A stretch of DNA of 64,000 nt, taken from positions 1-64,000 of the forward strand of contig JAEOTB010000037.1 in the NCBI GenBank assembly GCA_016840065.1, given 5' to 3'. The notes beneath the pieces were generated by a model that was given only the letters and a program-made list of their open reading frames with translations, ran no database searches and was not told where the DNA came from. Shown in pieces: positions 7,677 to 54,295 of this stretch. This DNA comes from Candidatus Hermodarchaeota archaeon. GTDB lineage: Archaea > Asgardarchaeota > Hermodarchaeia > Hermodarchaeales > Hermodarchaeaceae. Numbering within the stretch: position 1 is the stretch's first letter; every line of letters begins with the position of its first letter. A program made the position numbers and the translations under genes.

Positions 7677-7771
7677 GCCGGGATGGTGTAAACTGGAAAA
7701 CACCAGGCGCACTGGCAGCATTGAAGCCTGTGGAGCTTTAGGTTTGAGTTCAAATCTCAGTCCCGGCACCA
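7677..7771 (+). tRNA. tRNA-His(GUG) with a 21-nt intron at position 15/16; CCA encoded
   Basis: Acceptor GCCGGGA/TCCCGGC; after splicing the D-arm is GTGT-AATGGCA-GCAT; anticodon arm GAAGC-CTGTGGA-GCTTT; T-arm TTGAG-TTCAAAT-CTCAG; directly upstream of hisS. Confidence 0.88.
7692..7712 (+). other. Non-canonical tRNA intron (HBh' motif) ACTGGAAAACACCAGGCGCAC
   Basis: H GTGT(7686-89)/GCGC(7707-10); bulges AA^A and AC^T; h' CTGG/CCAG. Confidence 0.8.
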
Positions 7772-34367: not shown

Positions 34368-37300
34368 ATGGTTTCAAAGAAAACCATCTTCTCGATTCTT
34401 TCCTTGACGGTTATTGCTATTTTGGTTCTCTCATTTATAATTCCGCCGCTATTACTGCCCCCAATTCCCAGGGATGAACCCTACGAGGATGTCCCACCAT
34501 TCGGAGCGGGTGTAGTAGTAAACACCACAGGCGATGACGCCCTACTCATTAACATCACTATTGATGATGTTCCCTTTGATTTACCGTGGGATATTAACCC
34601 CTTTGAAACCTTTGCATTGGTCTCCCCAAATGACCCACCCCGATACTGGAAAAGGACCGCCTACGACACATACTCCTACATCTCGGGCTCAGGCTCAAGC
34701 TGGGGAAAGGATAACTCCACAAGGGTTCCATTAGCAGAACGTGCAAGTGCAGGTGATACAGTCTACACTGTCTCGATGAACATAACACATGGTCTCGGTG
34801 GAGACTTGGAACTATATTCTCTTTGGCCTAACCCTTGGATTATTCCTGATTCTGTGACTTCCCCCTACTTACAACTCCCCTACACTCTTGAAACAGATCA
34901 GTATGGTAGCACGATACTTAATGGACGGTTCGATTCCAATGGTACTTCTGAGCTAACCTATCAAGTTACCTACGATTCCACGCTTAACTGGACTGAAATT
35001 AGACCACAGGCAGTGTCAGCCAGCAACACACCCTCTAGCTTTAGCCTTTACCAAACCCAAGGATTAGATCAGCTAAGTACGCCTACTTCAAATGATATTC
35101 AGAACAGGCTTGACGCTATTCTAGCTGGGGTTCCAGACAATGCCTTTGAAGAGGCATTCGCCATCCTAGAATACTTCAAGGAAACCTTCACCTTTGATCT
35201 TTCTGCGGAGAGACCTGGATCTTCTGAATGTGTCGAATGGTTTCTATCAGGAGGGACAGGAATCGGTCAGGATTTCGCAACAGCCTACACCATGTTTCTT
35301 CGGAAACAGGGCATAGCTGCACGCCCTGTTTTTGGAGCCGCTCTGGGAGTCCTAGATGGTAGTCAGCGGAGTTTACAGTTCATGCATTTACATTTCTGGG
35401 TGGAAGTTTACATCCCGATTAGTAGCTCAGAGGGTTATTGGCTACAGTTTGACCCTACTCCTCTGCCAGGTTTTATCACAGGAACCCCCCCGGCAAGAGA
35501 CCCTTATGTTGTTAGCACATATTACGATCTTGCCATTGATGTTCCTACTCCCATCGTGGACCGAGGCGTCCAGTTCCAAGTACAGGCCACACTCACAAAG
35601 GATGGCTTGCCAGCTCCAGGTGAGACTGTAGAGTTCTGGGATGATACAGAAAATTGGCTTCTAGGCACCAACACCACATCTGCAACAGGAGATGCTTCAG
35701 TTACATTCACTTACAATAACTCGGCGATTGTGGGGGTACACATTCTTCGCGCATATTCACACGGAAAGAACGACTATGGTGGAATCGGGCTTCATGGTGC
35801 CGCTAATCTCACTTTCTTTGCTTCACCCCTAGAGCTTAACCGCACTTCGCAAATCCTGTTTAATGGCACCCTTACGGATGCAGTGAATGGAAGGGGAGTC
35901 TCTCAATATGAGACAATGTTGACTGAAGTCGATATCTACATCAACGCTCAAATAGCTGCTAGCGAATTCACTGATCAAGATGGAATATACACCACTTTCT
36001 ATTCTATCCCCCAGGACCACCATCCGCTTGGAGTGGCAACTGCCTTTGCTTCATTTAGTGTGCCCGGCGTGATTGATCCAGTTGTGAGTCTTCCTCAGGT
36101 GCTGAACATCACAGCTCGGTCCAAACTCTCCATTCAAGCAGTACCCAATGCTGCGCGCGCAAATAGTAATGTGAGCATTTCTGGGCAATTACTTTTCGAA
36201 AATGATACAGCGATACCTGGAGTCACTGTTCAGATATTTTGGAACGGAACACCTCTAGGAGGAGTCATCACAGATGGTAGTGGGAACTTTCTCTATGAAC
36301 ATAATGCGACATCTCTTGGTCAGGTGACCGTTGAGGCACAATACCTTGGTGGGGCGAATGTTTTTGGCTCAAGAGGAACCGTTCCAGTTGTTATCCATGA
36401 CGATGGCACAATCGTAGTCTTCGTTGACGACGATGACGGGGACGACTTAACACAGCGCGGAAACTGGGTTCAGTTTACTGGTTGGGTTGAGAACTCGACT
36501 GGACAGCCTCAAGGAGGTGTCACTGTCAACCTCTTCTTCAACGGGAGCTTCATCGTCACGACCACAACGAATGCGAGTGGCGGTATTGATTACTGGTATC
36601 AAGTACCAACAAGTCAGCCAGTTGGATTATTAGAAGTAACTGGTGATGTGGTCAGTTCTACCTTGCAGGTTGTGAGCACACTAGACTATTTGAGTATCAA
36701 CTCGACAACCCAGCTGATTAGCCTCCAATTCAATGCGAGCCAAGCCCGTGTTGAGGAGGGTATCGTTTTCACAGGTCACCTTGTAGACGATCAACTCGGG
36801 CAAATTTCTGGTGCAAATATATCTGCTGAACTATCTTATGACACTACAGTCATCTCATTAGGCTGGACTCTCACTCAGGCTAATGGTGTTTTTCAATTCA
36901 TTTCTACACTGCCAGCAAGCATCCCTGCAACTGTTTCGTCTGTAAACTTCAGTGCAAGTTTTAATGGTGATGTCTTTTACGGAACCAGTAATGCGTCCCA
37001 AACGCTGGATGTTTTCGTGAATGTTACATTGATAATTGACGTAGATAATGGACCTCACCCAGGAAGAACCAGTATCAGTGTTAACGGAACCTTGAGGGAC
37101 AGTTTTGGACGATCCCTGTCAAACCGTGAAATTCTCTTAATATTCAGCGGAGAAGTAGTATTTTCAGGGAGTACAAACAATCAAGGAAGAGTAAGCTTTA
37201 CACTTCAACTACCATCAGGGTTACCTCAAGTTAGTAGCTATCCCGTTCAGCTTCAGCACAATACAGTCATACTAATTGAATCAAATCAAGAATTAATCTT

Positions 37301-37802
37301 AGTCGAGGCAGAAATAATAATGCAATTTCCAATCCCTATCGGATATATCATACTCTTAGCAATTTTAATCATCGGAGCTATTATAGCAGTTATTATCTAT
37401 CGTCGGCTTAGAGGTCGAGGTCCCCGAGGGTCTAGAGGAGGCCCCTCAGTTGACGCGGCATCAATGTTAACTGAACTCCGCCAACTCCTCAGCGACCAGA
37501 AGTACCGGGAGAGCATCCTCTACGCCTTCCGGATGTTTGAAACAATCGTTCAGGGTAAACTTGGAATTTTCCGAGATCCAAACATGACGCTGCGCGAATT
37601 TGCCAACCTGACGACTGCCCAAGGAGGGTTAGATACGACAAGCATGCAGGTCTTTATCAGAGGAGTGGAAGAAGCCAAGTTCAGCGATCACCAAATATCC
37701 TACCAAACATGTTTAACGACGCTCAATGCGTTTGCGAACAACTATAATGTACTTACTGGCGGTTCTCTCCGCTTTGTTACAAGTCAAGAGACGCCGCAAT
37801 AA
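34368..37802 (+). CDS. Large membrane-anchored transglutaminase-like protein with Ig-like repeats and a DUF4129-like C-terminus
   Basis: YWKRTAYD, DFATAY..LR..GI.AR, HFWVEVY and FDPT motifs; repeated GxL.D...G.P strands; TLREF tail. Confidence 0.85.
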   Translation: MVSKKTIFSILSLTVIAILVLSFIIPPLLLPPIPRDEPYEDVPPFGAGVVVNTTGDDALLINITIDDVPFDLPWDINPFETFALVSPNDPPRYWKRTAYDTYSYISGSGSSWGKDNSTRVPLAERASAGDTVYTVSMNITHGLGGDLELYSLWPNPWIIPDSVTSPYLQLPYTLETDQYGSTILNGRFDSNGTSELTYQVTYDSTLNWTEIRPQAVSASNTPSSFSLYQTQGLDQLSTPTSNDIQNRLDAILAGVPDNAFEEAFAILEYFKETFTFDLSAERPGSSECVEWFLSGGTGIGQDFATAYTMFLRKQGIAARPVFGAALGVLDGSQRSLQFMHLHFWVEVYIPISSSEGYWLQFDPTPLPGFITGTPPARDPYVVSTYYDLAIDVPTPIVDRGVQFQVQATLTKDGLPAPGETVEFWDDTENWLLGTNTTSATGDASVTFTYNNSAIVGVHILRAYSHGKNDYGGIGLHGAANLTFFASPLELNRTSQILFNGTLTDAVNGRGVSQYETMLTEVDIYINAQIAASEFTDQDGIYTTFYSIPQDHHPLGVATAFASFSVPGVIDPVVSLPQVLNITARSKLSIQAVPNAARANSNVSISGQLLFENDTAIPGVTVQIFWNGTPLGGVITDGSGNFLYEHNATSLGQVTVEAQYLGGANVFGSRGTVPVVIHDDGTIVVFVDDDDGDDLTQRGNWVQFTGWVENSTGQPQGGVTVNLFFNGSFIVTTTTNASGGIDYWYQVPTSQPVGLLEVTGDVVSSTLQVVSTLDYLSINSTTQLISLQFNASQARVEEGIVFTGHLVDDQLGQISGANISAELSYDTTVISLGWTLTQANGVFQFISTLPASIPATVSSVNFSASFNGDVFYGTSNASQTLDVFVNVTLIIDVDNGPHPGRTSISVNGTLRDSFGRSLSNREILLIFSGEVVFSGSTNNQGRVSFTLQLPSGLPQVSSYPVQLQHNTVILIESNQELILVEAEIIMQFPIPIGYIILLAILIIGAIIAVIIYRRLRGRGPRGSRGGPSVDAASMLTELRQLLSDQKYRESILYAFRMFETIVQGKLGIFRDPNMTLREFANLTTAQGGLDTTSMQVFIRGVEEAKFSDHQISYQTCLTTLNAFANNYNVLTGGSLRFVTSQETPQ

Positions 37803-37838: not shown

Positions 37839-39242
37839 TTGTCAGAGAGTAGCGATGACAGTTCTGGTCCACCAGTAGCAGAAGTGAAAAAGAAAGGAAA
37901 AACCACGACAATCATCGTGTTTTGTTTCGTGTTCATCATTGCTTGGATGCCACTGGTGATCAGTATAACTGGTGTCGGTGATGTCGATACTATGAGCTAC
38001 TCCATGTACAGCGATGGCTACAATGGCTGCTCCCAACTTAGAAATACCCTCCAAGGAACAGGAGGATTTGAGGTTCATCCCTTAATCAGCTCACTTAGTG
38101 TTGTTAATGGGATTAACCGAAATAGTGTCCTCTGCGTTTTAGGCCCAACACTCGACTTCTCGATTATTGAGGCGTCCGCGCTCATCGACTTCTTTGTGAG
38201 TGGCTCATGTCTAATCATCGCTGATGACTTCGGTAGTGGAAACCGAATTCTTGATAACCTAGCACTTCTTATCCCTCCACAATATTTTCCCTCAGAACCG
38301 TTTGGGTTCACTTTAAGGTCTGCTGTTCGTTTTGAGCAGCGTCTTCTTCTTGACGCAGGATCAAATGATGATGGGAAACCTCTGCTACCTGCGATCACAA
38401 GCTTCAACGACGGTGGAGCCATTTTCCAAACAACACAAAGAGTGGTAATGAATTACGCCACAGGAATCCAAGGAATCGGAGGGAACTTCACAGTAATCGC
38501 CACTTCCTCTCCTAACTCTTGGGTCACCTCTGATTGGAACAATCCAGCATATGACCCTGAAAGAGGTGACACTGCAGGGCCCTTTACTCTGATAGGGGTT
38601 CTGAGTGTTGCTAATGGATTAATTGTACTTGTTAGTGATCCTAGTATCTTCATCAATGATATGATAGATCGTGCTGATAACAGAAGTTTCGCGTTGGAAT
38701 TATTCACCTACCTTGCCGAACAGACAAACACGAACACGATTATAATCGATCATAATCATTTGTCTTGGAGTCCTCTATCACCTGTACTTTATGTTGGTCT
38801 AGTGATGGGTCAGATAACCTATTTGTCAACGAATTGGCTGCTAGCACCTTTGGCACCGATAATGGCGATTTGGATGGTGAGAAAGTGGGTTACATTTGGG
38901 CGACCGAAGGAGGAGGAACCTAGCGAGGTGTACAGGCTCAGGGGACAGACAGCGTTCAGAGCTGAGTTAAATCGCTATCTTCAAAGCGAGCAATATGATG
39001 ATGCAATTCAGGTGATGTATACTCAACTAAAACGAGAACTTGTACGGCGGCACAGTCTTCGAGGATTCGATATATCAAGACTTCTAGCGGCGAGGTCAGG
39101 TTCTCTCCCTGAACGAGAATTATCACTCCTGAAAGACGATTTGGAAGCTTTGGAAAAAGCAACAGGAGCAAGGCGGCGCATTGACCGCAGCAAGTTCCTC
39201 GACCTATTTTGGAGAATAAAACGAATTAGAGAAAAATACTGA
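37839..39242 (+). CDS. DUF4350-like membrane protein of the MoxR operon
   Basis: IIADDFGSGN and SDPSIFINDM motifs; operon context. Confidence 0.75.
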   Translation: MSESSDDSSGPPVAEVKKKGKTTTIIVFCFVFIIAWMPLVISITGVGDVDTMSYSMYSDGYNGCSQLRNTLQGTGGFEVHPLISSLSVVNGINRNSVLCVLGPTLDFSIIEASALIDFFVSGSCLIIADDFGSGNRILDNLALLIPPQYFPSEPFGFTLRSAVRFEQRLLLDAGSNDDGKPLLPAITSFNDGGAIFQTTQRVVMNYATGIQGIGGNFTVIATSSPNSWVTSDWNNPAYDPERGDTAGPFTLIGVLSVANGLIVLVSDPSIFINDMIDRADNRSFALELFTYLAEQTNTNTIIIDHNHLSWSPLSPVLYVGLVMGQITYLSTNWLLAPLAPIMAIWMVRKWVTFGRPKEEEPSEVYRLRGQTAFRAELNRYLQSEQYDDAIQVMYTQLKRELVRRHSLRGFDISRLLAARSGSLPERELSLLKDDLEALEKATGARRRIDRSKFLDLFWRIKRIREKY

Positions 39243-39340: not shown

Positions 39341-40383
39341 ATGAGTGAACCTCCATCAACCCCAACTCCCCCTCCTCCAGCAGAACCTGCACCCCCTCCA
39401 GTAGAATCATCTGGAATGACAATAGCCGAAGTCCGTAGCCACGCTACACGAATACTCGACGAAGTAAACAAACTAGTAGTCGGGAAGCGCCACTTACTTC
39501 AGAATATACTGATTGGTCTGCTCAGCGGCGGGCACATCCTGCTAGAGGGCGTTTAAGGAACGCTCGGCAAAAAGGTGTTCCCGGTATTGCCAAGACGTAT
39601 GCAGCTAATACATTCGCGCAAGCTGTTGGTTGTTTGTTCAAACGAGTCCAATTCACTCCAGACCTCTTACCTGTTGACGTGACTGGGCATTCAATCTTTA
39701 ATCCTAGCTCCGGTGAGTTTTCTCTCCGAAAAGGTCCAGTCTTTACAAACGTTCTCTTAGCTGACGAGATTAACCGCTCCCCGCCAAAAACCCAATCGTC
39801 TCTACTTGAAGCTATGCAGGAAAAGCAAGTTACTATCGAGGGAACGACACTCCCCCTGCCCCACCCATTTATGGTTCTAGCGACACAAAATCCAATCGAA
39901 CTTGAGGGGACCTATCCTCTTCCCGAAGCGCAAGTTGACCGTTTTCTCTTCAAACTTCACGTCGATTATCCTTCTGAAACAGAGGAGGTAGAAATTCTTC
40001 GTCGGAGACATATCGGAGTAGGAAGTCGGGTAGACGCTGTAGTAAACCCGAACATCATTTTACGGATGCAGAGTACAATAAGAGAAGTGTTTGTCGAACC
40101 GCACATTTTGAACTACATAAGAGACATAGTCGTGCGGACTCGGAATGACCCTCAAATCCTCATCGGCGGCTCCCCACGTGCCTCAATTGTTCTCTTAGAA
40201 ACCTCGAAAGCCCACGCCGCGTTACAAGGCAGAGACTTTGTAACACCAGACGACATAAAGATGCTAGTACGCCATACCTTGAACCATCGCTTAATTCTGA
40301 AACCTGAAGCAGAACTTGAGGGCGCTTCGGTCCACTCTGTAATCGATCGCATACTCCGTCAGATTGGAGTACCGGGAGCATAG
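39341..40383 (+). CDS. moxR: MoxR family AAA+ ATPase, spliced join(39341..39545,39572..40383), 338 aa
   Basis: After splicing: [14 protein letters not shown] (Walker A), [17 protein letters not shown] (Walker B), ATQNPIE and DRF. Confidence 0.9.
39546..39571 (+). other. 26-nt BHB/BHL-type mRNA intron AGGGCGTTTAAGGAACGCTCGGCAAA
   Basis: h' GGGCGTT/AACGCTC; H TGCT/GGCA; bulges AG^A and AA^A; exon-exon helix; excision restores frame and Walker A. Confidence 0.85.
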
Positions 40384-40389
40384 ACCCAA

Positions 40390-41712
40390 ATGTTCAGCGA
40401 GAGAGGCCGTACTGTTCTTCTCATCGGAATATTCGTACTAGTCGGGGGTTTCGCCTTCACAAACTACTTCCTGACACTCCTAGGTATCTTCCTAATTGTA
40501 GGATCAGTTGTAACCTCACCATATTTCCAACTTACAATGCCCTTAGAAAGTTTACAGGTCACACGGGAAATAGACAAGGCTAACTTCTTTCAGGGAGACT
40601 TCATCCACATCAAACTCGCAATAAGAAACACTGGACGAAGTCGGATTGACTCCATACGTATCTTCGATGTATATCCTGATATTTTCAGACTAGTTCTGGG
40701 GAAAAACGAGCTAGTCACACGAATCGACGCAGGACAAACAATAAAGTTTTCCTATATTATGCAGGGAACACTCCGGGGAAAATATACAATTGGACCCACG
40801 AAGTTCCAGATACATGACAGGCTTGAGTTCAGGTTCGAAGAGCTATCGGCAGAAAACCTAGATGAGATATTGATTTACCCAAGTTACCAAGACGCGCGGA
40901 TTATGGAATCCCTTGCTGCACGGCGAAGGGTAGGTTACGCATTTGGTATTCATAAAACTCGGCAGAAAATGGGTTCAGAGGATTTTGTAGGTATTCGTCG
41001 TTTTGTGAGTGGTGATGAATCTAGAAGGATAGATTGGAAAGCAGTAGCGCGTACTCACAAATTAATGGTGCGCGAGTACGAAACAGAGCGAAACATGAGA
41101 GTCTTCATAATTTTGGATTGTGGAGATACGATGAGTGCGGGAAAGGCTGAGAACAGTAAACTTGAGTATGCGATTCGTGCAGCACTTCTCCTTGCGAAAG
41201 CTGCGATGGAGCGTAAGGACAAGGTGGGGCTACTGGCCTGGTCTACCAGCCAAGATACCTATCTTAAACCTAGTCTTGGGGAGGGCCATTATTATCGACT
41301 CCTCGACATCTTGGCTGCTATAGAAGCAGGAGGAGAGTTTGATTTAGCTGCTGCAGTACAATTCGTCGCAGCGCATGTAACACAGCAGAGCTTCTTCATC
41401 ATCCTTTCAGATTGTGAAGCAAATAGAGCCCAGCTTGAGAAGGGTGTCAGATTGATTCGCGGTCACAAGCACCACGCTATAATTATCGCGCCTTTCGGTC
41501 CATGGTTCGAAATAGAGGATGTATACCTTTCACCAGTTGAACGTGCATTGGGTGAGGCAATAGTATACAAATTACTTGAAGAGCGCCGTGCCCTCTCACA
41601 GAGCTTCCGACGCGTAGGAGTTCCAATTATTGATGTGGGTCCTGGTGACATTTTACCGACACTACTAAGTGAATACCTGAAGGCAAAGAAGAAGGGAGTT
41701 GCACAAATCTAG
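40390..41712 (+). CDS. DUF58 (vWA-like) MoxR partner
   Basis: DFVGIRRF..GD..RRIDWKA.AR..KL.VREYE motif; LDCGDTM. Confidence 0.9.
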   Translation: MFSERGRTVLLIGIFVLVGGFAFTNYFLTLLGIFLIVGSVVTSPYFQLTMPLESLQVTREIDKANFFQGDFIHIKLAIRNTGRSRIDSIRIFDVYPDIFRLVLGKNELVTRIDAGQTIKFSYIMQGTLRGKYTIGPTKFQIHDRLEFRFEELSAENLDEILIYPSYQDARIMESLAARRRVGYAFGIHKTRQKMGSEDFVGIRRFVSGDESRRIDWKAVARTHKLMVREYETERNMRVFIILDCGDTMSAGKAENSKLEYAIRAALLLAKAAMERKDKVGLLAWSTSQDTYLKPSLGEGHYYRLLDILAAIEAGGEFDLAAAVQFVAAHVTQQSFFIILSDCEANRAQLEKGVRLIRGHKHHAIIIAPFGPWFEIEDVYLSPVERALGEAIVYKLLEERRALSQSFRRVGVPIIDVGPGDILPTLLSEYLKAKKKGVAQI

Positions 41713-43502: not shown

Positions 43503-45173
43503 TTACATCATTCCTGGAGGCATACCACCCATTCCTGGAGGCATACCACCCATTCCAGGGGGCATACCACCGGGACCACCAGGAGGAGCTGCACTTCGTT
43601 TAGAAGCTATGACATCGTCGATTCGGAGAATAAGAGCAGCTGCCTCTGTAGCTGAACGGAGCGCGTGTGTTTTCACTCGTAAAGGTTCAATGACACCTGC
43701 CTGTAGCATATCCTTGGTTTTTCCTTCGAAGACATCCACACCGATATTCGTCTTGTTTGAACCGTGATCAGAGCGGAGTTCAACGATTATATCTATTGGA
43801 TCATGCCCAGCGTTCTCTGCTAATGTCTTGGGAATGATTTCCACTGCGTCAGCAAATTTCCTCACTGTTATCTGATCGCGTCCCTTGAGAGAACGGGCAT
43901 ACTCACGCAGGCGTGTTGCTACTTCGATTTCAGGCGCGCCACCACCTGGTACCACTTTGCCATCCTCAATGGCATCTCGAACAACGCAGATAGCGTCACG
44001 GAAGGCTCGCTCAGCTTCGTCAACAACTCTCTCAGTACCGCCACGAAGGAGGATACACACAGATTTTGGATCAGTGCATTCAACGACGAAGACCATCTTG
44101 TCATCACCGACTTTGCGCTCCTCTACGAGACCGCACTCACCTAAATCTTGAGCAGTCAGGTGAAGAACTGAAGAAACGGTACGCCCACCAGTAGCCCGGG
44201 CAAGCGCCTCCATATCGCTTTTCTTGATGCGACGGACAGCTAGAATACCTTCTTTAGCGAGGTAGTGTTGGACTTTATCATCAATACCTTTCTGGCAGAA
44301 AACCACGTTTGCACCTGTTTCCTTAATCTTATCTGCGATGTTTTTCAACATCCTTGCTTCCTCTTCGAGGAATGCCTTCATTTGTTCAGGATCAGTGATT
44401 CGGATTTCTGCATCCATCTCTGTCTTCTCGACTTCCAACGAAGCGTTGAGAAGTGCAATCTTGGCACCCTTAATCATCGTTGGCATTTCTGAATGGACAA
44501 CTTCTTTATCAATAATCAAACCCCGAATAAGTTGGGTCTCATCGAGTGAGCCACCCTCCTTCTTCTCCACCTTGATGTGATCGATGTCTGCAACAATTCC
44601 TTTCGGAGTTTTTTCAGCTATTTGCAGCACTGCATCAACGGCAATGGGACTAAGAGAGTCCACCTCAGAAAAGACTAGCTTGCTAGCCATCGAAGTGTTC
44701 ACAATTTGTAAGAGCTTTTCCCGGTCTTCCATTGAACAGGGAATACTCATACTTTCAAGAACTTCATCAGCTTTCTCAACCGCTTTCCTGTAACCAGAGA
44801 TGATTACAGAAGAATGGATGTTCAATGTCAACATTGTTTGCGCTTGCTTGAGAAGTTCACCACAGAGAATAACAGCGGTAGTGGTACCATCACCCACTTC
44901 AGCATCTTGAGCTTTTGCGACCTGCACTAGCATTTTGGCTGCTGGGTGCTGCACCTCAATCTCGTCGAGGATTGTAGCGCCGTCATTAGTAATTGTGACA
45001 TCTCCTAGGCTATCCACTAGCATCTTGTCTTGACCACGAGGTCCAAGTGATGAGCGGATAGCATCAGCCAAGGCGCGAATGGCCATGATGTTGTTATAGC
45101 GGGCATCCCGGCCGCGAGATCTTTCAGTACCTTCTTTCAGTATGATTACAGGTACTCCGGATAACTGAGACAT
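43503..45173 (-). CDS. ths: Thermosome (group II chaperonin) subunit
   Basis: [19 protein letters not shown] and LRIDD motifs; GGM tail. Confidence 0.97.
43509..43571. repeat. 3 x 21-nt tandem repeat encoding the GGMPPGM chaperonin tail
   Basis: CATTCCTGGAGGCATACCACC twice plus one variant copy. Confidence 0.9.
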
Positions 45174-52170: not shown

Positions 52171-52290
52171 GCCGGGATAGCCCAGTGGTACGGCGCGGGC
52201 CTTGAGTGGCGAAGGTAACAAGTTCCTCCTTTTCCCCTGCTAGCCCGTGACTTTATAGTCTCGGGGGTTCAAATCCCTCTCCCGGCGCCA
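52171..52290 (+). tRNA. tRNA-Ser(UGA) with a 35-nt intron at 37/38; CCA encoded
   Basis: Acceptor GCCGGGA/TCCCGGC, G73, anticodon stem CGGGC/GCCCG, spliced loop CTTGAG^A, long variable arm GAC-TTTATA-GTC, T-arm GGGGG-TTCAAAT-CCCTC. Confidence 0.9.
52207..52241 (+). other. Canonical-position tRNA intron with a degenerate central helix
   Basis: Bulges AG^T and CT^A; h' GGCGAAGG/CCTTTTCC; H CTTG/CCTG has only 2 of 4 pairs. Confidence 0.7.
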
Positions 52291-52394
52291 CTCTCAACGA
52301 CTCGTTGTGCTTGTTTACAAATCTGCTAAACATTGAATATATAATTACAAATTAATCGCGAAATATCAGTCATTAAGCTGGGATTGGGTGTAGA

Positions 52395-52820
52395 TTGTTG
52401 CAGTTTGAATATTTCGATGATATCACTTCGGATCAAATGTTTCGAGCCTATGGACAGGATTTACCAGAGGTATTCAAGCACGCTGCAATGGCAATGTTTG
52501 GAATAATGTTCGATTTAGAAGAAGTACAAACCGAAGCGGAAATAGAGGTAGAGGCAACAGGAGCCTCCGAGGAGATGCTCCTTTATGATTGGCTGTCTAA
52601 CCTGCTATTCGAATTCGAGGTCAAGTACGTGTTCTTTGCAGACTTCAACGTCACAACTATCGAGCGTGATGAAGAAGGAAACTTGTACCTTGTTGGATTA
52701 GCAAGTGGAAGTCTTACGCCTCAGGAGCGGCGAACCCACGTCAAAGCGGTCACCTTCCACAGATTCTGCTTGGAAAAAATTGATAACAGGTATGTGGCTA
52801 CTGTAGTTGTGGATGTCTGA
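52395..52820 (+). CDS. Archease
   Basis: FEY.D.TSD, LLYDWL and VKAVTFH...VDV motifs; upstream of rtcB. Confidence 0.92.
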   Translation: MLQFEYFDDITSDQMFRAYGQDLPEVFKHAAMAMFGIMFDLEEVQTEAEIEVEATGASEEMLLYDWLSNLLFEFEVKYVFFADFNVTTIERDEEGNLYLVGLASGSLTPQERRTHVKAVTFHRFCLEKIDNRYVATVVVDV

Positions 52821-52846
52821 ACGAACAAACACGATGGTGATAGAAG

Positions 52847-54295
52847 ATGAAGGAGAAACTGAAACAACTAGACGAGTTTCGCTACTGGCTCGACAAGACA
52901 GCCCGCCCCAAGATGAGAGTAGGCGCGATGTTATTTGCTTCACGCAAAGTTATACAACAAATAGAAGATAGCGCGGTTGAACAATTAACCAACGTCGCCT
53001 GTCTACCAGGTGTTATTGAGCCAGTTTTAGCCATGCCAGACGCACATTGGGGATATGGCTTACCAATGGGCGCAGTCGGGGCCTTTGACGCTGAGGAGGG
53101 CGTGATATCAGCTGGGATGACCGGTTTTGATATCAACTGCGGTGTCCGGTTAATTCGTACTAATCTAACTCAGGCTGAAGTTAAGCCCAAACTTCGTCAG
53201 CTCATGGAGGAATTGTTCAGGCGCGTGCCTGCTGGCGTCGGCTCTAGAGGTAAGATTCGCTTGAGCAATTCCGAGTTGGATGGTGTTTTACAGCTTGGTG
53301 CTCGATGGGCAGTCGAGAGTGGTCGCGGAGTTGACGCGGATTTAGAGCACTGTGAGGAAAGGGGCAATATGGAGGGTGCCGCAACCGGCTTGCCAGAGCT
53401 TTCAGAGCGGGTACGAACGCGTGGAAAACCTCAGCTGGGCACACTCGGTGCCGGTAATCACTACCTTGAAGCCCAAGTAGTTGATGAGGTGTTTAATGAA
53501 GAGGCAGCCTCCCGTTTTGGTTTAGAAAAGGGGAAAGTGGTTGTGATGTTACATTGTGGATCTCGCGGTTTCGGTCACCAAGTGGCAACTGATTACCTGA
53601 AGAGTATGGAGGTGGCTGCGCGGAAGTATAAAATTTGGTTGCCAGACAGACAACTCGTCTGCGCTCCAACCACATCGCCAGAGGGGCAAGCCTACTATTC
53701 CGCGATGAAGTCAGCCGTGAACTACGCCTTCTGCAACCGGCAAGTAATGACTCACTGGATTCGGGAAGGCTTTGAAACTGTCTTTGGGCGAGACTGGGAA
53801 AAACTAGGTCTTCACCTAGTTTATGATGTTTGCCATAATATATGCAAGCTAGAAACCCACGAGTTACACGGTGCAAAAAGGCAACTCTACATTCATCGAA
53901 AAGGTGCTACTCGTGCTTTTGGACCCGGCAACCCGCTTATCCCCCCTCACTACCAACCCGTTGGACAGCCAGTACTGATTGGTGGCTCTATGGGCACAGC
54001 CTCTTATGTACTAGTTGGTACAGAGCAGGCAATGAAAGAATCGTACGGTTCTACATGCCATGGTGCTGGACGCGCTATGGGTCGAAAAGCAGCCACAAGG
54101 AGATTTCATGGTAGGGAGATTCAACGTTCGCTTGAGCAATCAGGTAAAGTGATAAAATCTCATAGCGCCAAGCTACTCGCTGAAGAAGCGCCCAAGGCTT
54201 ACAAGGATGTCCACATGGTGATTGACGCAGTCCACGGAGCAGGAATTTCTCTGAAAGTCACGCGCCAGATTCCAATGGGCACTGTCAAAGGCTGA
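52847..54295 (+). CDS. rtcB: RNA-splicing ligase RtcB
   Basis: PDAH.GYG, DINCG, GNHY, HCGSRG, HRKGATRAF and HGAGR motifs. Confidence 0.97.
   Translation: MKEKLKQLDEFRYWLDKTARPKMRVGAMLFASRKVIQQIEDSAVEQLTNVACLPGVIEPVLAMPDAHWGYGLPMGAVGAFDAEEGVISAGMTGFDINCGVRLIRTNLTQAEVKPKLRQLMEELFRRVPAGVGSRGKIRLSNSELDGVLQLGARWAVESGRGVDADLEHCEERGNMEGAATGLPELSERVRTRGKPQLGTLGAGNHYLEAQVVDEVFNEEAASRFGLEKGKVVVMLHCGSRGFGHQVATDYLKSMEVAARKYKIWLPDRQLVCAPTTSPEGQAYYSAMKSAVNYAFCNRQVMTHWIREGFETVFGRDWEKLGLHLVYDVCHNICKLETHELHGAKRQLYIHRKGATRAFGPGNPLIPPHYQPVGQPVLIGGSMGTASYVLVGTEQAMKESYGSTCHGAGRAMGRKAATRRFHGREIQRSLEQSGKVIKSHSAKLLAEEAPKAYKDVHMVIDAVHGAGISLKVTRQIPMGTVKG

Follow-up and report, generated by a model that had tools for sequence, protein, structure and literature searches.

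How does an Asgard archaeon make the AAA+ ATPase MoxR from a gene whose reading frame breaks just ahead of the Walker A motif? The DNA that we analyzed (64,000 nucleotides, here called the window) belongs to a MAG (84% complete, 5% contamination) and contains the sole moxR copy of the assembly, in a cluster with the order transglutaminase-like/DUF4350/moxR/DUF58-VWA. An earlier interpretation made from the letters alone (the sequence-only reading) had placed a tRNA-type intron at the break and had suspected an Asgard host. The host assignment was borne out, as a record from the same family is deposited as Promethearchaeota and GCA_016550505.1, which has the same moxR stretch as the congener G003, is listed as Hermodarchaeia (PMC10307638). 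The gene is split into a 71-amino-acid open reading frame (ORF) at 39341 to 39556 on the plus strand, ending in GHILLEGV and a stop codon, and a second frame. AAA_3 and lid domains, an intact Walker A, and the adjoining DUF58/VWA gene identify it as a member of the MoxR class, and an intron-free MoxR orthologue covers AAA_3 positions 1 to 131. The 26-nt insert that separates the two frames is a real feature of the gene. The locus is laid out as follows, in window coordinates.

34368 to 37802, plus strand: transglutaminase-like/Ig-domain protein, upstream and co-directional
37839 to 39242, plus strand: DUF4350 protein, upstream neighbor
39341 to 39545, plus strand: moxR exon 1, 68 codons and the first base of a Glu codon
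39546 to 39571, plus strand: predicted BHB-type intron of 26 nt, frame-shifting and stop-bearing, based on the sequence and on comparison with orthologues
39572 to 40383, plus strand: moxR exon 2, with Walker A, AAA_3 core, and AAA lid
40390 to 41712, plus strand: DUF58/VWA protein, the usual MoxR partner, intact

We consider it very likely that the moxR mRNA contains these 26 nt as an intron spliced by EndA and RtcB, like the one in cbf5. The moxR pre-mRNA is predicted to fold into a slightly relaxed bulge-helix-bulge (BHB), with two 3-nt bulges on opposite strands, located 3' of a 4-bp central helix, and with flanking helices. Its elements are the following.

39529 to 39538, plus strand: 5' arm of the exon-exon helix, with exon-1 third-position constraint
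39540 to 39543, plus strand: exon strand of the central 4-bp helix, UGCU (UGUU in one lineage)
39544 to 39546, plus strand: bulge 1, AGA, invariant in four lineages and in a second Asgard family; predicted 5' cut after 39545
39547 to 39565, plus strand: intron hairpin, a 7-bp stem with a variable 5-nt loop
39554 to 39556, plus strand: in-frame stop in the loop that ends the unspliced 71-amino-acid ORF, TAA (TAG in one lineage)
39566 to 39569, plus strand: intron strand of the central helix, GGCA, invariant in four lineages
39570 to 39572, plus strand: bulge 2, AAA; predicted 3' cut after 39571
39574 to 39583, plus strand: 3' arm of the exon-exon helix, more variable and weakened in one lineage

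All four pairs of the central helix can form (U-A, G-C, C-G, and U-G), and the intron stem comprises 7 bp (39547 to 39553 with 39559 to 39565), with a possible eighth pair, U-G. The exon helix, with 9 of 10 pairs, lies beyond one C.A mismatch that turns the 3' site into a 1x4 loop, and the motif is therefore slightly relaxed. The coordinates, helices, bulges, stop in the loop, and 9-of-10 exon helix given in the sequence-only reading all agree with the sequence. The folding energy of an 81-nt stretch around the insert does not stand out (z = -0.77), and that of a 61-nt stretch does so modestly (z = -2.62).

According to the proposed mechanism, a two-subunit EndA would cut past the second base of each bulge, i.e., after 39545 and 39571, and RtcB together with archease would join the exons, restoring the Glu codon ahead of Walker A and a MoxR of 338 amino acids; we infer cleavage, ligation, and intron circularization from the known chemistry of EndA. 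Deletion of 39546 to 39571 indeed yields an intact 338-amino-acid MoxR ORF. The same protein results from nine distinct 26-nt deletions (starts 39546 to 39554), so that the protein by itself leaves the boundaries unfixed. The intron-free congener G002 encodes a 338-amino-acid MoxR that is 94% identical without gaps, and its DNA is exactly that of the predicted junction. Only two of the nine deletions, which are equivalent, reproduce the G002 junction, and the BHB rule selects one of them. Thus, the prediction that cutting by the second-base rule removes 39546 to 39571 and gives 338 amino acids matches the DNA of a close relative. Scans of metagenome contigs, a collection that may lack near-identical records, matched neither the spliced junction nor the intron-bearing 3' junction. 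A full-length 338-amino-acid relative from one Logan run was considered as a spliced transcript and turned out to be an intron-free congener, 81% identical.

The sequence-only reading called for EndA, RtcB, and archease, and genes for all three were found in the genome. Of the two EndA-family genes, one (contig C85, 16767 to 17324) encodes an alpha subunit that keeps the catalytic Tyr, His, and Lys and has its nearest match in 3p1z, the alpha subunit of Aeropyrum (E = 6e-45), and the other (C10, 100109 to 100714) resembles a beta subunit. In the alignment, a K-P-K of the alpha subunit falls opposite K44-P45-R46 in the specificity loop of crenarchaeal enzymes, which is tied to broad substrate range. 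The host EndA is thus predicted to be of the two-subunit, broad-specificity type that acts on relaxed motifs, alongside an RtcB ligase. Three features of the window relate to this machinery.

7692 to 7712, plus strand: 21-nt insert in the D arm of a tRNA-Gln, with the same BHB layout at a non-canonical position; the same machinery is expected to act on it
52404 to 52817, plus strand: archease, the RtcB cofactor (Pfam match)
52982 to 54292, plus strand: RtcB RNA ligase, single copy (Pfam match)

The tRNA called Gln, which bears the D-arm insert, spans 7677 to 7771. An intron-bearing tRNA-Ser, archease, and rtcB adjoin one another at 52171 to 54292, 13 kb from moxR. Several tRNAs of the genome carry BHB-shaped inserts of 21 to 31 nt at non-canonical sites, and many tRNAs with such inserts are consequently hidden from ARAGORN. 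An Rfam scan of the window returned tRNAs only. Promoter and terminator scans stayed at shuffle level, with a bacterial consensus applied to an archaeal host.

A broken frame could also stem from a pseudogenizing insertion or an assembly error, and two circumstances would suit this explanation: the genome is a MAG, incomplete and with some contamination, and moxR is probably not essential. The insert occurs at the identical moxR site in four lineages of the genus, i.e., in this genome, in G003 (and three further assemblies), and in two ENA lineages, with exons that are 80 to 84% identical and with independent assemblies (NCBI, ENA, and Logan). Among these lineages, dN/dS is 0.02 to 0.09 for exon 1 and 0.01 to 0.06 for exon 2, at a synonymous divergence near 1, and the insert-bearing genes contain no stop other than that of the intron. 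Relaxed selection and further lesions, as expected of a pseudogene, were not found. Furthermore, in 54 kb of synteny with G002, the moxR insert is the only in-gene, frame-breaking gap of at least 8 nt. Since the insert stands at the same site in four lineages, the exons are under selection, and the insert is conserved together with its bulges and pairings, both an assembly error and a pseudogene can be set aside, and we give this explanation practically no chance. Within the window, the C-terminal repeat of the thermosome gene (43503 to 43575) shows in-frame 21-nt repeat-length differences between congeners.

Conservation of the insert is high: it differs at 1 to 6 of its 26 positions, compared with 54 to 68% of synonymous sites (binomial P of 5e-4 to 1e-8). 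Both bulges and GGCA are unchanged across the four lineages, and changes fall in the variable loop or mostly keep the pairs. In the intron stem, a G-U pair has become G-C, a C-G pair has changed on both sides to U-A, and a pair is broken in one lineage. In the true register, 96% of cells pair, versus 38 to 50% in slid registers. Covariation in the moxR intron amounts to the one both-sided change, and 178 of 500 shuffles score equally high. On the exon side, the G-H-I-L-L-E codons that close exon 1 show no variation at their third positions (6/6 invariant), compared with 32/127 elsewhere, in a test whose region was picked from the structure. For G003, in which two pairs of the central helix are G-U, prediction on free RNA puts this helix at about 3%, versus 50 to 90% for the others.

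The alignment of orthologues proposed in the sequence-only reading therefore came out mixed: presence and absence could be mapped and pairing was mostly kept, while covariation did not rise above shuffles. Taken as a whole, the comparative evidence supports a BHB-type mRNA intron with the predicted boundaries.

Ribosomes could also arrive at the same protein without any splicing. In translational bypassing, they would take off at GTT 39551 to 39553, directly before the stop, and land 26 nt further on at GTT 39577 to 39579. This genome has the matched codons, the stop after the take-off codon, and the hairpin that define such elements (PMC8211752), and GTT followed by TAA or TAG is kept in all four lineages. 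However, three of the four have GTG as their landing codon, so that the match exists in one lineage, and the inserts in moxR of the second family, tuf, dnaG, and EF-2 described below have no matched codon pair. Bypassing also leaves the invariant GGCA-AAA and the third-position constraint in exon 1 unexplained, and we regard it as very improbable. Splicing and ribosomal hopping would give the same peptide, and proteomics would thus not separate the two.

Two further translational routes are less attractive still. The gene might be truly split, so that an N-terminal peptide of 70 amino acids and a C-terminal ATPase with a start of its own assemble as two chains. Both halves are under selection, and in three lineages gene callers let an ORF of 268 to 269 amino acids begin at GVPG, on a GTG. 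This codon is GTT here, and the following start codon in that frame, TTG 39634, lies beyond Walker A. Since the break would moreover part the strand that precedes the P-loop from the loop itself and the conserved RNA structure would have no explanation, we consider a two-chain MoxR highly improbable. Alternatively, a programmed -1 frameshift could carry ribosomes through the insert, as the exon-2 frame is open across it in all four lineages, yielding a MoxR with about nine extra residues ahead of Walker A. Against this stand the lack of a slippery heptamer ahead of the stop, the placement of the extra residues at the P-loop entry, and the sister inserts of 28 to 32 nt, which would need other shifts and in some cases have stops in the frame needed; a frameshift is, to our judgment, extremely unlikely.

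The motif expected of an EndA substrate recurs at the same moxR site in unrelated sequence. In a second Asgard family, moxR carries AT-rich inserts of 30, 31, and 32 nt at the identical position, with unrelated sequence and the same AGA and AAA bulges; their central helices have 3 to 4 pairs, often 3 of 4. Close relatives within that family have an intact moxR. Two of its members, L258 and L259, show another 30-nt BHB insert with stops farther downstream in moxR.

Similar inserts also interrupt other genes of the lineage. The single-copy tuf gene (EF-1alpha) contains two frame-breaking BHB inserts of 31 and 29 nt (contig C10, outside the window, 75395 and 75552, minus strand) that are absent from 14 other tuf genes examined. 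In several sister-genus genomes, tuf lies at contig ends or is cut by them. The gene for DnaG, also single-copy, has a frame-breaking BHB insert of 28 to 31 nt in all 18 covered genomes of the family, each with a 4/4 central helix; in this genome it is located as follows.

C10, 107682: dnaG insert

Acetyl-CoA synthetase genes (acs) carry a frame-breaking insert of the same type, 30 to 31 nt long, in the genus (C113, 13591, and C105), which two sister-genus copies lack. One of two EF-2 homologues, a gene missing from this 84%-complete assembly, has a frame-breaking 30- to 31-nt BHB insert in its switch-I motif in 13 relatives. The hairpins of these EF-2 inserts are divergent, the central helix is 4/4 in all 13, and one of its pairs covaries (A-U, G-C, and G-U). 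Application of the second-base rule restores a conserved protein motif for the inserts of tuf, dnaG, acs, and EF-2. Translation factors are not plausibly dead across a family, which implies that some mechanism removes or skips the inserts, and the feature that they share is the EndA motif. The moxR insert would hence be one of several candidate mRNA introns in the genome and not an isolated case.

Intron 1 of tuf and the dnaG intron of the sister genus differ by one indel and one substitution and share the same six-base target; tuf intron 1 is closer to this intron than to the dnaG intron of its own genome. This near-identity suggests that introns move between mRNAs, possibly between species. 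Copies of the moxR intron with up to 7 mismatches were not found elsewhere in the genome, hence no tRNA donor emerged. On balance, it seems reasonably probable that in Hermodarchaeia and other Asgards, splicing via EndA and RtcB is routine for the mRNAs of genes that are unrelated to one another and include core genes (moxR, EF-1alpha, EF-2, DnaG, and Acs), and that mini-introns move between mRNAs and get lost.

A count of introns for the genome cannot be read from the motif. BHB geometry combined with ORF joining gave 227 matches genome-wide, compared with 189, 175, and 174 for controls with 2-nt, 4-nt, and mirrored bulges. The genome-wide scan of split genes that the sequence-only reading had suggested thus did not show enrichment of the true geometry, and as the motif-only scan fails to separate it from the controls, we give no number of introns; comparative evidence is needed to carry a case beyond chance. 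In a stricter genome scan, which overlooked the inserts of tuf, dnaG, and acs, the moxR site ranked first. Two further candidates with strong hairpins and ORF joining were noted at C85 7226 (minus strand, 31 nt) and C88 6322 (minus strand, 29 nt).

The moxR insert is absent from the congeners G002 and L254, from 14 of 14 covered sister-genus genomes, and from 13 more distant orthologues. The insert-bearing copies do not form one clade (p-AU 7e-5), and one of them is sister to an intron-free lineage with a support of 99/100. As the inserts are homologous, precise loss or allele exchange must have taken place at least once. In a 15-gene tree, the branching of G000, G002, and G003 differs between DNA and protein. 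The two intron-free congeners, G002 and L254, are not sisters and yet have the same codons ahead of the junction, a hint of intron loss via recombination with an intron-free allele. In the moxR region of G003 (contig C70, 14600 to 22700), the gene has as neighbors, on the opposite strand, ORFs of 847, 367, and 817 amino acids without Pfam match in the parts scanned, and the final 140 nt of moxR are duplicated ahead of DUF58; these surroundings are possibly an integrated element.

The same distribution bears on the suggestion, made in the sequence-only reading, that splicing gates production of the chaperone in a parallel to XBP1. In XBP1 and HAC1, an endonuclease cut is followed by a tRNA-type ligase, and the XBP1 intron measures 26 nt. 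There, the substrate of IRE1 is a pair of separate stem-loops instead of a BHB, and the process is regulated by stress. Such control, as an addition to splicing, would fit with an unspliced RNA that ends after 71 codons and with a central-helix strength, and so possibly an efficiency, that differs among lineages. However, the intron is missing from two congeners and the covered sister-genus genomes, its copies are not one clade, and introns are scattered across unrelated genes, some of them in a single genome; EndA, moreover, serves tRNAs too. Close relatives have a working MoxR with no intron in its gene, and nothing therefore supports a regulatory gate, which we consider unlikely. The match in length to XBP1 is coincidental, as the sister introns measure 28 to 32 nt. 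The intron is probably not a dedicated regulatory switch, and the scattered distribution is better explained by tolerated insertions: it would be one of several in mRNAs of the lineage, kept in shape because it must stay cleavable.

If these mRNAs are spliced, several protein genes of the closest prokaryotic relatives of eukaryotes have introns, those of single-copy translation factors among them, which bears on the origin of introns and of RtcB-based mRNA splicing. Protein genes broken by introns, with mRNA splicing as a necessity, would then be a genome-wide trait in archaeal relatives of eukaryotes. Asgard annotations would also hold false pseudogenes and false gene absences; a homologous N-terminal piece of moxR is recorded at NCBI as a "hypothetical protein." The moxR intron offers a good test case, as it is short, the enzyme pair is known, and alleles with and without it occur within one genus.

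In the publications consulted, splicing of the endonuclease type within a coding sequence of archaea is shown for one gene, cbf5 (PMC2738675 and PMC7714728), in agreement with the precedent named in the sequence-only reading. A literature search that covered few subscription journals found no publications on Asgard mRNA introns. Very probably, moxR is a new gene and Asgard a new lineage for a known mechanism, and a multi-gene pattern like the one seen in these sequences was not found in print. The BHB intron of the cbf5 pre-mRNA is described for Desulfurococcales and Sulfolobales in PMC2738675, which cites Watanabe 2002 and Yoshinari 2006; introns in other genes were predicted but unconfirmed (PMC2738675). 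In 2020, cbf5 was named as the only earlier mRNA case, to which a 5' UTR intron was added (PMC7714728).

The intron of cbf5 and that of moxR are both short inserts within a codon at a conserved functional motif, BHB-like, and cut, or predicted to be cut, past the second bulge base, with a hetero-oligomeric EndA and a patchy pattern of gain and loss among relatives. Splicing has been shown for cbf5 in these sources and is inferred for moxR. In contrast to cbf5, the present case concerns the gene of a MoxR AAA+ ATPase, the Asgard phylum, and a genome in which a number of unrelated genes carry such inserts. The BHB intron in the 5' UTR of Haloferax HVO_1309 likewise belongs to an mRNA processed by the tRNA splicing endonuclease, but it is untranslated, whereas the moxR intron breaks the reading frame (PMC7714728). 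Closer in phylum are the non-canonical tRNA introns of Asgards (bioRxiv 10.64898/2026.10.13.758758 and PMC11291895), which share the motif, the size range, and repeated gains; these papers treat tRNA genes, and the main text of the 2026 preprint mentions neither mRNA nor cbf5. Finally, T4 gene 60 and the mitochondrial byps (PMC8211752) also have an insert that forms a hairpin and in which a stop follows a codon found again downstream, as in this genome. Unlike in these elements, the codon match in moxR is not conserved and is absent from the sister inserts, and the features that are conserved are those of the BHB.
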